NCBI GenBank assembly: GCA_020631395.1
Contig: JAHDHI010000002.1
Location: forward strand, 34,100 to 66,099
DNA from: Bizionia sp.
Lineage (GTDB): Bacteria; Bacteroidota; Bacteroidia; Flavobacteriales; Flavobacteriaceae
Direction: 5' to 3'
Length of the DNA stretch: 32,000 nucleotides
Both the position numbers and the translations under genes were made by a program. The first letter of the stretch is position 1. The number at the start of each line of letters is the position of its first letter. A model generated the notes under the pieces. The model saw nothing but the letters and a program-made list of their open reading frames with translations, was not told the DNA's origin and did no database searches. Of the stretch, positions 17,587 through 32,000 are shown in pieces.

Positions 17587-18582
17587 ATGAATTTTATGAT
17601 TAAAGAAAATACTGGTATCCCGAAATACAAGCAAATTATCAAATCCATAGAAGAGTCCATCCTCAACGGAGTCTATAAAAGGGGTGATAAATTGCCTTCG
17701 ATTAACAGTATTAAGTTTAGATTTTCCTTGTCTAGAGACACCGTTCTACTTGCTTATAACGATCTCAAGACAAGAGGCATCATACAATCCGTACCTGGCA
17801 AAGGGTATTATGTAAAGACGGAAAACGTAGATACTCAGCAAAAGATATTCCTCCTTTTCGACGAGTTGAATGGATTTAAAGAAGAACTCTTCAATTCGTT
17901 CATAGAAAATCTTGGAGACAACATCGAGGTCGATATTTTCTTCCATCACTTCAATCACAATGTATTCAATAAACTCATATATGACAACATAGGCATATAC
18001 AACACCTATGTCATCATGCCTGCCAATTTGAAGGAAACCAATATTTTCCTAGAAAGATTGCCAACCGACAGGGTTTACATTCTTGATCAAATGCATCAAG
18101 AACTATCCAAATACCCCTCCATATTCCAAAACTTTGAAAAGGATATTTTCAGCGCATTGTCGAACGGATTGGAATTGCTAAGGAAGTATAAAAAATTGAT
18201 TCTACTCTTTCAAAAGGACATAGAGCCTACAGGAATGCTCCATGGTTTTGAAAAATTTTGTATGAAAAACGATTTTGAATACGAAGTAATAGATACGATC
18301 GGAGATAGAATACCTGAAAAGGGAGAAGTCTACTTAATCCCAGATGACAGAAATCTAATTCGGGTGATTAAGAAAATCAAAGAACTCGATTTGATTCTTT
18401 CCAAAGATCTTGGCATCATCTCATATAACGACACATTGCTAAAAGAAATTGTAGAGGATGGCATTACCACCATATCCACGGATTTCAAGGCAATGGGAAA
18501 ACGTTTGGCCGAAATGATCATCAACAAAGAGTTTGCACAAATAGAAAACCCCAACAATTTAATCATACGAAAATCCCTCTAA
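17587..18582 (+). CDS. GntR-family transcriptional regulator with C-terminal sugar-binding (LacI/PBP1-like) domain
   Basis: 331-aa ORF. The N-terminal winged-HTH IPKYKQIIKSIEESILNGVYKRGDKLPSINSIKFRFSLSRDTVLLAYNDLKTRGIIQSVPGKGYYV is classic GntR. The remaining ~250 aa have the alternating beta-alpha pattern of periplasmic-binding-protein-type effector domains. It is the first gene of the plus-strand operon, 4 nt before the next gene. Confidence 0.85.
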   Translation: MNFMIKENTGIPKYKQIIKSIEESILNGVYKRGDKLPSINSIKFRFSLSRDTVLLAYNDLKTRGIIQSVPGKGYYVKTENVDTQQKIFLLFDELNGFKEELFNSFIENLGDNIEVDIFFHHFNHNVFNKLIYDNIGIYNTYVIMPANLKETNIFLERLPTDRVYILDQMHQELSKYPSIFQNFEKDIFSALSNGLELLRKYKKLILLFQKDIEPTGMLHGFEKFCMKNDFEYEVIDTIGDRIPEKGEVYLIPDDRNLIRVIKKIKELDLILSKDLGIISYNDTLLKEIVEDGITTISTDFKAMGKRLAEMIINKEFAQIENPNNLIIRKSL

Positions 18583-18586
18583 AGCC

Positions 18587-19504
18587 ATGTTACTTTTTGA
18601 CATAGAATCCATTGAAGACAAAAACAACGCATTAGGTTATTTAAAGCTACAAAGCCCCAATAAGAGATCACATGCAAAAATTGCTCTTAATTTAGGAGCC
18701 AGTTTGCAAGAGCTATACATAAACGACAAATCCATAATTGAAACAGGCGACATGGACTATGGAAGCAGCTATGCCTCATCGGTTCTATTCCCTTTTGTCA
18801 ACAGGGTGAAAGAAGGCAAATACACTTTCGACGAAAACGAATATCTTTTGGAAACAAATGCGAAAGAAGAAAAGAATGCTCTTCATGGCTTGATTTACGA
18901 CAAGACCTTCAAGGTAATCACAAAAGAAATCACAAAAGATCGAGCTTCTGCCACATTGGAATACAAAGAAACGCGTAAACCCAAAGGGTTTCCTTTCAAT
19001 TACTCCATTGCACTCAAATACACTTTGACCAATACAGATTTAAAACTGAAAGTATCCGTAAAGAACATAGATACCAAACCCTTCCCTTTCAATATAGGTT
19101 GGCATCCTTATTTTTCGAGTAGCGATCTATACAACAGTTTCATCGGGATTGAGAGCAGTAAGAAATTCGTAGTGGATGAGGCCATGATCCCTATAAAAAC
19201 TGAGGACATATCACTCGATCAATTTCTTCAAATAAAAGATAGCTCCTTTGATGATTGCTTTATTCTGAATAAAAACAATGTAAATTTCAAAACACCAGAT
19301 TACGAAATAGAACTCAGTACTTCCTATGAGGAAAACTACCTACAGATATATACCCCAAAAAACAGAAAACACATAGCCATAGAACCAACCACCGCTCCTG
19401 CCGATAGTTTTAACAATAGTTACGGATTACAAGTTTTAAAACCTGAAGATACACACAAGATAAGTTGGATGATTAACCTGAAAAGCTATGAACAGTACAA
19501 TTAA
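18587..19504 (+). CDS. Aldose 1-epimerase (galactose mutarotase-like) family protein, cytoplasmic
   Basis: 305-aa ORF with no signal peptide. It has NALHGLIY and FNIGWHPYF, the conserved His-containing motifs of the aldose-epimerase fold. Its 3' end overlaps the next gene by 17 nt. Confidence 0.8.
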   Translation: MLLFDIESIEDKNNALGYLKLQSPNKRSHAKIALNLGASLQELYINDKSIIETGDMDYGSSYASSVLFPFVNRVKEGKYTFDENEYLLETNAKEEKNALHGLIYDKTFKVITKEITKDRASATLEYKETRKPKGFPFNYSIALKYTLTNTDLKLKVSVKNIDTKPFPFNIGWHPYFSSSDLYNSFIGIESSKKFVVDEAMIPIKTEDISLDQFLQIKDSSFDDCFILNKNNVNFKTPDYEIELSTSYEENYLQIYTPKNRKHIAIEPTTAPADSFNNSYGLQVLKPEDTHKISWMINLKSYEQYN

Positions 19505-30800: not shown

Positions 30801-30994
30801 CTGGATTGGTTCCTGTGACAACAAAACACGGTGCCGACATTAAAATCGGAGAAACTGTACAATGGAACATCGATTTCCTACAAATGGGGCTCGGAGGTGA
30901 TACTTCTTGGGGACGATTGGTACATCCTGAATATACCATCCCTTCCAATACATCATATAGCTATTCATTTACAATACAACCTTTAAAAAAATAG
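27854..30994 (+). CDS. GH2 beta-galactosidase (LacZ-type, five-domain), lipoprotein; paralogue of 21514-24810
   Basis: 1046-aa ORF. Lipoprotein signal [18 protein letters not shown]. It has the same LacZ blocks as the first copy: [37 protein letters not shown], the nucleophile [20 protein letters not shown] and [10 protein letters not shown]. By eye it is roughly half-identical to the first GH2. Confidence 0.9.
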
Positions 30995-30997
30995 ATT

Positions 30998-32000
30998 ATG
31001 CAATTTTTAACCTTTATAGGCTTTACAATTCTCGTTGCTTTAATTTCCTATCTAAAAACAAGAAAAACAAATGAAAATACTTCTGATGGCTATTTTCTTG
31101 GAGGAAGAAGTTTGACTGCAGGAGTAATTGCCGGGTCTTTATTACTCACGAACCTATCCACAGAACAAATTGTCGGATTAAATGGATCTGCCTATGAAAG
31201 TGGTCTATCGGTGATGGTTTGGGAAACTTTGGCTGCAATTGCAATGGTGGTGACTGCTATGTTTTTACTGCCAAGATATCTAAAAGGAGGGTTAACAACG
31301 ATTCCTGAGTTTTTGGCAAAGAGGTTTGATGTTGCTACAAAGACTTGGACTTCCGTCCTATTCTTAACTGGTTACGTAGTGGTATTGTTGCCAGTCATCT
31401 TGTATTCAGGATCTTTGGCAATTAGCGGCATGTTCAATATTCCCGAATTATTGGGCATTACACATACACAATCCATTTGGCTTTGTGTTTGGGGCATTGG
31501 CATAGTTGGTTCCATATATGCCGTTTTTGGAGGCCTTAAGGCAGTTGCCATATCCGACTCCATCAATGCAATAGGCTTGTTGATTGGTGGAATATTGATT
31601 CCTGTCTTTGGGTTGTTATTGATAGGAGATGGAAGCATTATTGATGGGCTTTCCGTCTTGACTACCGAAAACCCCGAAAAGTTCAAATCTATGGGAGGCC
31701 CAACAGACCCTGTTCCTTTTTACACCATCTTCACGGGAATGATGCTCGTGCAATTGTTTTATTGGGGAACTAATCAACAAATCATACAAAGAGCATTAGG
31801 AGCAAAAGACTTAAAAGAAGGGCAAAAAGGGTTGCTATTGGCTTCTTTCATAAAAATTCTAGGTCCCATAATTGTGGTGTTACCAGGATTAATTGCCTTT
31901 CATGTGTTTGATGGAAGTTTAGAGGCTTCGGATAAAGCCTATCCTATGTTAGTAAACAAAGTTCTACCGAAAGCTTGGATTGGTTTCTTTGCTGCAGTAC
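30998..32000 (+). CDS. Sodium:solute symporter (SSS/SGLT family), 3' end cut by window edge
   Basis: This gene is not in the ORF track because no stop is reached. ATG at 30998, 3 nt after the GH2 stop, is open to the window end. The translation MQFLTFIGFTILVALISYLKTRKTNENTSDGYFLGGRSLTAGVIAGSLLLTNLSTEQIVGLNGSAYESGLSVMVWE..LPRYLKGGLTTIPEFLAKRFD is the canonical SSS-family N-terminus (DYFLGGR, TN.S.EQ..G). Confidence 0.85.
   Translation, partial: MQFLTFIGFTILVALISYLKTRKTNENTSDGYFLGGRSLTAGVIAGSLLLTNLSTEQIVGLNGSAYESGLSVMVWETLAAIAMVVTAMFLLPRYLKGGLTTIPEFLAKRFDVATKTWTSVLFLTGYVVVLLPVILYSGSLAISGMFNIPELLGITHTQSIWLCVWGIGIVGSIYAVFGGLKAVAISDSINAIGLLIGGILIPVFGLLLIGDGSIIDGLSVLTTENPEKFKSMGGPTDPVPFYTIFTGMMLVQLFYWGTNQQIIQRALGAKDLKEGQKGLLLASFIKILGPIIVVLPGLIAFHVFDGSLEASDKAYPMLVNKVLPKAWIGFFAAV

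Follow-up and report, generated by a model that had tools for sequence, protein, structure and literature searches.

What does a bacterium degrade with an operon that places a cytoplasmic kinase/phospho-lyase fusion protein among extracytoplasmic glycosidases? The operon in question lies in a 32,000-nucleotide (nt) stretch of a Bizionia sp. genome (Bacteroidota; Flavobacteriaceae; assembly GCA_020631395.1, contig JAHDHI010000002.1, positions 34,100 to 66,099 of the forward strand), and this whole stretch is called the window here. Seven genes of the operon fall within it. They encode a GntR-type regulator, a mutarotase, a glycoside hydrolase (GH) of the GH63 clan, a LacZ-type enzyme (GH2a), the fusion, a second LacZ-type enzyme (GH2b), and a Na+/solute symporter. 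We consider it likely, from gene content and comparative genomics, that the operon is a catabolic system for the glycosylated 5-hydroxylysine (Hyl) of collagens and collagen-like proteins, which occurs as glucosyl-galactosyl-hydroxylysine (Glc-alpha1,2-Gal-beta-O-Hyl) and galactosyl-hydroxylysine (Gal-beta-O-Hyl). All operon enzymes keep their catalytic residues, and the gene set recurs across genera and in two phyla. Dozens of genomes and metagenomes share the arrangement, which is far from chance.

Collagen is the most abundant animal protein, and the Glc-Gal units on its hydroxylysine are conserved from sponges to humans. Mammals excrete Gal-Hyl unmetabolised. We know of no natural route by which the hydroxylysine-linked Glc-Gal units of collagen are recycled. 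The operon is built from known enzyme families; what appears to be new is the predicted substrate, for which the literature searched gave no bacterial route, and the putatively trifunctional enzyme, which is uncharacterised.

Conserved linkage of the fusion and the glycosidases

The forward synteny sample comprised 80 genome loci that carry the fusion gene (57-79% identity), nearly all from marine Flavobacteriaceae of many genera. Neighborhoods were compared by tblastn with the window proteins and, separately, by a window-independent clustering of all neighboring open reading frames (ORFs). The forward figures are raw locus counts and are restricted to loci with enough flank. The GH63 gene lies immediately 5' of the fusion gene in 35 of 67 genome loci, a GH2 gene lies directly downstream of it in 33 of 70, and the full GH63-fusion-GH2 triad is found in 30 of 62. 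For the reverse comparison, the GH63 protein was used as the query against metagenome contigs, which gave 66 orthologues (52-83% identity) with downstream sequence. The fusion gene comes next, directly or after GH2a, in 49 of the 66; five more loci have GH2a and a GH27 alpha-galactosidase gene and then the fusion gene, and only a handful are without it. The fusion thus occurs without GH63 about half the time, whereas GH63 almost always occurs with the fusion. This asymmetry fits a role for GH63 as the remover of an optional capping glucose on the substrate of the fusion.

The surroundings of the triad vary. Some loci resemble a polysaccharide utilization locus (PUL) of Bacteroidota and have a SusC/SusD pair with either an extracytoplasmic function (ECF) sigma/anti-sigma pair or a tetratricopeptide repeat (TPR) regulator; about 21 related genomes have SusC/SusD genes next to their version of the triad. 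Other loci are like the window, with a GntR regulator, mutarotase, symporter, and galK/galT. Because the gene order around the triad varies, the linkage has been maintained through rearrangement and not simply inherited. The window differs from a typical PUL in that Pfam and NCBIfam domain scans found no SusC/SusD pair among the proteins of its 32 kb, in that a glycosylated amino acid or glycopeptide, and not a polysaccharide, is its proposed target, and in the inclusion of an amino-acid-degrading enzyme. One locus labeled Candidatus Latescibacterota (L077) has a flavobacterial-type DUF4407-GH63-fusion-hydroxyproline cluster at 60-69% identity, and this label likely reflects a binning error or a recent transfer.

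Hydroxyproline and lysine catabolism genes near the fusion

Upstream of the operon, the window has two overlapping genes, of the OCD and ProRac families, that are predicted to form a 3-hydroxyproline-to-proline route (Table 1). This pair is a unit separate from the operon in the window; in relatives it directly abuts the operon on the upstream side. The predicted trans-3-hydroxy-L-proline (3-Hyp) dehydratase has its Cys/Thr catalytic pair in the motifs GYSTMCGHA and DRCPTGSG, and its best matches in the PDB are 6R76 and the human T3LHyp dehydratase 7QPO (1.3e-83); on its own equivalog model it scores 344 bits, under the cut-off of 540. A gene for an S37 peptidase adjoins the OCD/ProRac pair in 11 genome loci. 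3-Hydroxyproline is, as far as is known, an essentially collagen-specific residue.

Loci that lack the glycosidases place the fusion within a trans-4-hydroxyproline (4-Hyp) cluster. This cluster comprises an epimerase (above its equivalog cut-off), a D-amino-acid dehydrogenase, an enzyme of the dihydrodipicolinate synthase (DHDPS) family, an enzyme like alpha-ketoglutaric semialdehyde (KGSA) dehydrogenase, and an AraC regulator. Its peptidases are M24 prolidases, dipeptidyl peptidase IV (DPP-IV), M20 and S37 enzymes, and a PD40-amidohydrolase/Xaa-Pro-dipeptidase-like protein. Flanks of 8 kb or more on each side are available for 53 loci, and 39 of these have hydroxyproline genes, GH63/GH2 genes, or both.

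In Pseudomonas benzenivorans, the fusion gene comes after the gene for HglS, which converts 2-oxoadipate to D-2-hydroxyglutarate. A YdiJ-like dehydrogenase, a saccharopine dehydrogenase, a lysine decarboxylase, and an ABC system of the basic-amino-acid type are encoded in the same vicinity. These neighbors represent the 2-aminoadipate branch, which the product of a phosphohydroxylysine lyase would enter. Of the amino alcohols, hydroxylysine alone ties together collagen, lysine catabolism, and an alpha-Glc/beta-Gal disaccharide.

Two further genes precede the hydroxyproline genes in the window (185-3757), one for a BlaR1-like M56 membrane protein of 769 amino acids (aa) and one for a DUF4407 protein. 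DUF4407 recurs close to the fusion, in 16 of the 80 genome loci, and tblastn places the M56 protein upstream in several metagenome loci.

Domain structure of the kinase/M23/lyase fusion

The fusion is 1008 aa long. An APH-fold kinase occupies aa 1 to about 340 (nt 24818-25840), an M23 metallopeptidase domain aa 439-536 (nt ~26132-26425), and a class-III pyridoxal phosphate (PLP) domain of the phospho-lyase type aa ~581-1008 (nt ~26558-27844). The kinase part matches Pfam APH at 1e-17, with HNDANDNN at 202-209 and IDYGD at 225-229, and the PLP part matches Aminotran_3 at 5.5e-78. On the NCBIfam model PRK06148, which is named only “hypothetical protein,” the whole chain scores 1127.2 bits against a cut-off of 1128. 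Other fusion homologues in the protein collections searched likewise carry generic source names.

An alignment of 81 fusion homologues (37-100% identity, three phyla) was used to follow the active sites. The kinase residues K51, H202, D204, N209, and D226, the M23 zinc and catalytic residues H440, D444, H494, H530, and H532, and the PLP lysine K849 are invariant. The M23 domain thus keeps its HxxxD motif, catalytic histidine, and HxH motif in every one of the 81 proteins, from which it follows that selection maintains the domain as an active site and not as a linker. Catabolic enzymes of the cytoplasm do not usually contain an active M23 site. As a speculation, the site in the fusion may perform a third, peptidase-type step, possibly the release of Hyl from a di- or tripeptide.

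Comparison with solved structures gives the closest characterised relatives of the two flanking domains. The best PDB match of the lyase domain is human ethanolamine-phosphate phospho-lyase (6TOR, 9.8e-132), followed by an Arthrobacter enzyme (5G4I, 1.9e-89), and both rank well ahead of any transaminase. An AlphaFold2 (AF2) model of the kinase domain (mean confidence, pLDDT, 90) has an APH-like fold, and a PDB fold search shows that it resembles small-molecule hydroxyl kinases, including the aminopropanol kinase 6EF6. A Herbaspirillum homologue carries the KEGG label “hydroxylysine kinase,” an automated annotation (PMC13275390). The fusion is proposed here to be a hydroxylysine kinase and 5-phosphohydroxylysine phospho-lyase, with the substrate suggested by genomic context. 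Bacterial fusions of this kind were reportedly already remarked on by Veiga-da-Cunha and colleagues in 2012.

GH63 and the two GH2 enzymes

The GH63 protein has 678 aa and two Pfam domains, an N-terminal YgjK_N beta-sandwich and an MGH1-like_GH (alpha/alpha)6 catalytic domain. Its closest solved relative is E. coli YgjK (1.7e-71), with which it shares the two-domain architecture and the catalytic Asp/Glu: in the alignment, YgjK D501 and E727 have their counterparts in the Asp of WESGMDNA and the Glu of IRENY. It differs in that the solved YgjK chain has about 760 residues, whereas the window enzyme is a shorter lipoprotein that scores well below the YgjK equivalog cut-off. The protein is a distant relative of YgjK, a homologue and not an orthologue. 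YgjK has been crystallised with Glc-alpha1,2-Gal (PDB 3W7W; bioRxiv 10.64898/2026.07.01.735942). By analogy with this precedent, and from synteny, the GH63 lipoprotein is proposed to be an alpha-1,2-glucosidase that cuts glucose off Glc-Gal-Hyl.

The two GH2 enzymes are paralogues with 40.6% identity. GH2a begins with a plain signal peptide and GH2b with the lipobox LAFGC. A domain and motif search found the catalytic motifs WSMGNE and EYAHAMGN in GH2a. Both paralogues keep the equivalents of LacZ D201, H391, E416, H418, E461, Y503, E537, H540, W568, F601, N604, and W999, and with them the acid/base, the nucleophile, the Mg site, and the residues of the -1 subsite. On the NCBIfam model Bga2A (cut-off 999), GH2b scores 1023.8 and GH2a slightly under the threshold at 971.6. 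GH2a is an accessory copy, found in only a minority of related operons. GH2b is the core partner of the fusion and the proposed Gal-beta-O-Hyl galactosidase, an activity to which, as far as we know, no gene has been assigned in any organism.

Two substitutions distinguish these enzymes from E. coli LacZ. Asp replaces Asn102 in all 34 GH2b-type sequences, and Glu797 is changed to Met in both paralogue types. These changes may be adaptations to a positively charged aglycone. A gene for a GNAT acetyltransferase comes after the fusion gene in 11 genome loci. Its recurrence is of interest because Gal-Hyl reportedly resists ordinary beta-galactosidases unless its amino groups are acetylated.

Homologues outside Bacteroidota

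A full-length fusion homologue (38% identity) is encoded on pSymB of Sinorhizobium meliloti and in Ensifer adhaerens. The gene order there is LacI regulator, amino-acid substrate-binding protein (SBP), permease, short-chain dehydrogenase/reductase (SDR), fusion, UgpC, sugar SBP, two permeases, GH63-like enzyme, LacI regulator, and GH42 beta-galactosidase. The GH63-like enzyme, of 570 aa, lacks a signal peptide and shares 24% identity with the window GH63. Rhizobium sp. ARZ01 retains the order fusion-LacI-GH42. In this rhizobial version the glycosidases are cytoplasmic, uptake is by ABC transporters, and the GH42 enzyme is non-homologous to GH2. The functional trio was therefore assembled independently in Rhizobiaceae, from an unrelated beta-galactosidase family and with a different mode of uptake and location. 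The association thus recurs in a second phylum, with non-orthologous replacement of GH2 by GH42.

In Rhizobium sp. ARZ01 (L094), two paralogous fusions lie 10 kb apart (1-176 and 10001-13033), each by a family-3 amino-acid-binding protein, and GH42 is linked to only one of the two. The fusion family may hold more than one specificity. In Labrenzia sp. PHM005 (L091), a Peptidase_M10 (matrixin-type)/DUF5648 protein is encoded at 8600-9775, immediately 5' of the fusion homologue and beside an AsnC regulator; this is possibly another link to extracellular-matrix proteolysis.

Organization and regulation of the operon

A conserved operator-like palindrome precedes the operon genes, which are tightly packed into one unit. 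The coordinates of these genes, with those of the hydroxyproline and peptidase genes, are given in Table 1.

Table 1. Features of the window, with positions counted from its first nucleotide
Feature	Position	Strand	Basis
GntR/sugar-binding regulator gene	17587-18582	+	GntR 1.6e-13; Peripla_BP_3 1.2e-5
Aldose 1-epimerase (mutarotase) gene	18587-19504	+	Pfam Aldose_epim 3.5e-46
GH63-clan lipoprotein gene	19488-21524	+	MGH1-like_GH 7e-65 and YgjK_N
GH2a, exported LacZ-type beta-galactosidase gene	21514-24810	+	Five-domain GH2, catalytic motifs
Kinase/M23/PLP-lyase fusion gene	24818-27844	+	APH, Peptidase_M23, and Aminotran_3
GH2b, lipoprotein LacZ-type beta-galactosidase gene	27854-30994	+	Five-domain GH2; NCBIfam Bga2A
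Na+/solute symporter gene (SSF, YidK type)	30998-32000, runs past window end	+	Pfam/NCBIfam
Candidate operator, inverted repeat AACCAACCAGTAGCTACTAGTTTA	17539-17562		Conserved motif upstream of regulator gene
Delta1-pyrroline-2-carboxylate reductase gene (OCD family)	6052-7011	+	NCBIfam PRK06141 375.5 vs cut-off 322
trans-3-Hydroxy-L-proline dehydratase gene (ProRac family)	7004-8047	+	Cys/Thr pair; PDB matches
Exported S37 peptidase gene (PS-10, prolyl tri/tetrapeptidyl aminopeptidase family)	3752-5065	-	Profile match

According to the ORF list, the spacings between the seven successive genes are +4, -17, -11, +7, +9, and +3 nt, and the ATG start of the symporter ORF was read directly in the sequence. 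A preliminary description of this DNA had reported seven packed, co-directional genes with gaps of -17 to +9 nt, which the ORF list and the sequence at the 3' end match exactly. Its gene identities (GntR, mutarotase, GH63-like, two GH2, fusion, and symporter) are borne out by Pfam and NCBIfam, and inspection of the N-termini agrees with its cytoplasmic mutarotase and its fusion without a signal peptide. It had called the GH63 enzyme exported; export holds, but the enzyme is not merely exported, as the lipobox LFTSC makes it a lipoprotein.

The regulator joins a GntR-type helix-turn-helix (HTH) domain to a LacI-type, periplasmic-binding-protein-like sugar-binding domain, according to Pfam; the match to the latter falls slightly under its gathering score. 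Regulator orthologues hold the same position in four loci (L034, L043, L060, and L098) and in many metagenome loci. The regulator probably senses a sugar or glycoside product. The inverted repeat sits about 30-45 nt 5' of the GntR start codon, within an 88-nt divergent intergenic region. An operator-like motif, AACC[AT]ACTAGTACCTAC[TC]AGTT, stands upstream of the regulator orthologue in 15 of 16 loci and is a perfect palindrome in L034; in most of the 16, a -7 box of the Bacteroidetes type (TAnnTTTG-like) comes after it. The repeat and the -7 box are read as the candidate operator and promoter of the operon. A terminator scan found no terminator-like sites between the operon genes, with counts at shuffle level, and the sigma-70 promoter and terminator scan as a whole, also at shuffle level, is uninformative for a Bacteroidota genome.

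The operon extends beyond the window. A relative with 87% identity (L098) has the same seven genes, followed by galK, a gene for a DUF4440 lipoprotein, and galT, and the window therefore cuts off a roughly ten-gene operon. The full-length symporter orthologue in L098 scores 786 against a cut-off of 401 on PRK10484; the symporter probably imports galactose and/or glucose. The gene for the small DUF4440 (SnoaL-like) lipoprotein (18931-19365 in L098) is present in 16 of the 80 genome loci, either between galK and galT or right after the fusion gene. In an ENA contig whose fusion is 99% identical to that of the window (L099), GH2a, GH2b, and the melibiase-like gene described below are each split into two ORFs, which are probably assembly frameshift errors rather than real pseudogenes.

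The minus-strand block

A 9.4-kb block on the minus strand (8141-17498) separates the 3-Hyp genes from the operon. It encodes a Cys/Met-PLP enzyme, whose best NCBIfam match is an archaeal alanine/glutamate racemase (487 bits), and an NhaC-family transporter that resembles the ArcD arginine/ornithine antiporter. This carrier could be a transporter of basic amino acids, perhaps of Hyl. Also in the block are genes for an FGE-sulfatase-type protein, a sulfatase, a melibiase-like protein, and a GH97 protein that reaches 779 bits, against a cut-off of 800, on the retaining alpha-galactosidase model. The block was considered as part of the operon and rejected: most relatives are without most of it, and the OCD/ProRac pair abuts the regulator gene there. 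In the closest relatives, the GH97 and melibiase-like genes stay divergent to the regulator gene, with the operator-bearing intergenic region in common.

Proposed pathway and alternative explanations

In the proposed pathway, collagen glycopeptides would reach the periplasm, a step for which the SusC/SusD pair is available in related genomes. The GH63 lipoprotein, periplasmic or on the cell surface, would cut off the terminal alpha-1,2-glucose, and the GH2b lipoprotein, helped in this organism by the exported GH2a, would cut beta-galactose off the hydroxylysine. The Na+ symporter would bring in galactose and glucose, and the mutarotase would convert beta-galactose to alpha-galactose, feeding the products of galK/galT, whose genes would lie just past the window. 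Hydroxylysine or a short Hyl peptide would enter the cytoplasm via a carrier outside the known parts of the operon. The kinase domain of the fusion would phosphorylate the 5-hydroxyl group of Hyl to give 5-phospho-Hyl, and the PLP domain would eliminate phosphate and ammonia to give 2-aminoadipate semialdehyde, which would pass into lysine catabolism.

The Glc-Gal-Hyl interpretation had been put forward in the preliminary description, and comparative genomics lends it support through the two-way synteny, the second phylum, and the hydroxyproline/peptidase and HglS neighbors. That description had also named the enrichment of GH2, GH63, mutarotase, and symporter genes beside fusion homologues as a test, and the outcome was positive in both directions, as the counts above show. 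Its statement that no bacterial pathway of this kind is described agrees with the literature searched, which yielded only vertebrate HYKK/PHYKPL, the GH65 enzyme PGGHG, and the Herbaspirillum KEGG label. A bolder version of the pathway is tentative and on balance doubtful. According to it, these would be the first known enzymes that fully dismantle the collagen hydroxylysine glycoside, with GH2b as a dedicated Gal-beta-O-hydroxylysine galactosidase and the fusion as a three-step channeling enzyme, whose M23 domain would cut Hyl from di- or tripeptides while the flanking domains phosphorylate and deaminate it.

Several observations weigh against the assignment to Glc-Gal-Hyl. The operon includes no gene for a Hyl transporter or an aminoadipate-semialdehyde dehydrogenase, though the glycosidases are located outside the cytoplasm and the fusion inside it. 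A simple kinase and lyase scheme has no place for the invariant M23 site, and neither has the scheme of the preliminary description. The best solved match of the lyase domain is an ethanolamine-phosphate lyase, and no PHYKPL chain was among the PDB matches returned; likewise, no chain named hydroxylysine kinase was among the best 50 PDB fold matches of the kinase domain, and the best 150 representatives in a sequence search with that domain are bacterial or metagenomic proteins without informative names. Sequence alone cannot tell hydroxylysine from ethanolamine, 1-amino-2-propanol, or another vicinal amino alcohol as the substrate. The GH63 protein reaches 338.9 bits on PRK10137, the YgjK alpha-glucosidase model, where the cut-off is 625, and GH63 enzymes are said to prefer nigerose (bioRxiv 10.64898/2026.07.01.735942). 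The collagen and glycosidase context is missing at 14 of the 53 flavobacterial loci and at most other homologues from Alphaproteobacteria and Actinobacteria (Phyllobacterium, Shinella, Ruegeria, Roseibium, Ilumatobacteraceae, and others), which means that the association does not extend to the whole fusion family. Finally, alpha-galactosidases, which are superfluous for Glc-Gal-Hyl, recur with the operon: the GH97 and melibiase-like genes are divergent to it here and in L098, and a GH27 alpha-galactosidase gene stands between GH2a and the fusion gene in five metagenome variants (L104, at 13379-14554, L114, L120, L147, and L178). This recurrence suggests that the natural substrate pool also holds alpha-galactosides, which fall outside the Glc-Gal-Hyl model. 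Some invertebrate cuticle collagens carry galactose oligosaccharides.

Some of the same observations would suit a different aglycone. The fusion might act on another vicinal amino alcohol (ethanolamine, 1-amino-2-propanol, a sphingoid base, or another aglycone) that is freed from a non-collagen glycoconjugate, such as a glycosylated sphingoid base or a marine galactoside. The solved lyase relatives 6TOR and 5G4I act on phosphoethanolamine, the kinase model resembles a kinase of a microcompartment (6EF6), and the accompanying alpha-galactosidases hint at glycans more complex than Glc-Gal. We nevertheless judge such a substrate unlikely, as it would leave unexplained both the repeated setting of the fusion in 3-Hyp/4-Hyp and prolyl-peptidase clusters and its HglS/lysine-catabolism neighborhood in Pseudomonas. 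No ethanolamine/propanediol microcompartment shell or aldehyde-handling genes were found among the window proteins or the recurrent neighbor clusters, and the pairing of an alpha-glucosidase with a beta-galactosidase is an exact match to the collagen disaccharide. A related candidate, in which the GH2 enzymes target the Hyp-O-galactose of plant or algal hydroxyproline-rich glycoproteins, was rejected because hydroxyproline is unsuited to a kinase/ammonia-phospho-lyase pair, and also because the 3-Hyp pathway points to animal collagen.

Two other explanations detach the fusion from the glycosidases or from nutrition. The GH2 enzymes, mutarotase, Na+/sugar symporter, galK, and galT make up a classic galactoside set, and GH63-GH2b occurs without the fusion in a few loci (L137, L146, and L162), so that the operon could be an ordinary beta-galactoside/galactan and galactose (Leloir) operon with the fusion as an unrelated passenger linked in this lineage. 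This is quite improbable in view of the position of the fusion between glycosidase genes at gaps of 7-9 nt, its place after most GH63 orthologues, the retention of the triad in PUL-type loci without Leloir genes, and the independent assembly of the functional trio in Rhizobiaceae with GH42 replacing GH2. Less probable still is that the fusion serves the cell's own metabolism, for instance in the turnover of hydroxylysine aminolipids or in a transaminase or biosynthetic role, instead of collagen nutrition. Hydroxylysine lipids are reported in Bacteroidetes (PMC4484230), and the loci without catabolic context would be in keeping with such a role; but the fusion family occurs equally in Alphaproteobacteria, Pseudomonas, and Actinobacteria, its neighbors are exported glycosidases, peptidases, SusC/SusD, and transporters and not lipid genes, and the closest characterised enzymes are lyases, not transaminases. 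Degradation of glycosylated hydroxylysine remains the preferred explanation.

Comparison with known systems

The nearest biochemical counterpart is the vertebrate pair HYKK/AGPHD1 and PHYKPL/AGXT2L2, as described by Veiga-da-Cunha et al. (2012, J Biol Chem 287:7246) in the form in which PMC5714238 and PMC8154272 cite that work. Both systems combine an APH-fold kinase with a class-III PLP enzyme from the phospho-lyase branch, and the proposed reaction sequence is the same, from Hyl via 5-phospho-Hyl to 2-aminoadipate semialdehyde, NH3, and Pi. HYKK and PHYKPL are two distinct proteins that lack a genomic link to deglycosylation, whereas the bacterial domains are joined in one protein, with the conserved M23 domain between them, in a glycosidase operon. 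In the literature searched, no link between HYKK/PHYKPL-type enzymes and glycosidases was found, nor any report characterising the bacterial kinase-lyase fusions.

Vertebrate PGGHG/ATHL1 (EC 3.2.1.107, GH65) cuts the alpha-1,2-glucose off Glc-Gal-Hyl (PMC8626586, PMC11012932), the same step as is proposed for the window GH63. The two differ in family: PGGHG belongs to clan GH-L, and the window enzyme is GH63/MGH1-like, of clan GH-G. PGGHG was the only enzyme named for the collagen disaccharide in the literature searched on collagen and alpha-glucosidases. The nearest solved structures belong to enzymes that apply the same kinase-then-phospho-lyase logic to a vicinal amino alcohol, namely the aminopropanol kinase and phospho-lyase of the mycobacterial RMM microcompartment, ETNPPL (6TOR), and Arthrobacter A1RDF1 (5G4I). 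The fusion differs from these in its M23 domain and in a genomic context that points to hydroxylysine.

Possible implications for collagen degradation by bacteria

If the proposed pathway is true, it would give a function to the widespread PRK06148 family and a physiological substrate to the bacterial GH63 family. In glycoproteomics, the enzymes would allow collagen, adiponectin, C1q, and mannan-binding lectin to be deglycosylated site-specifically. For marine Flavobacteriaceae, including fish-associated Tenacibaculum, and for rhizobia, the pathway would be a route by which carbon and nitrogen are drawn from the animal matrix.

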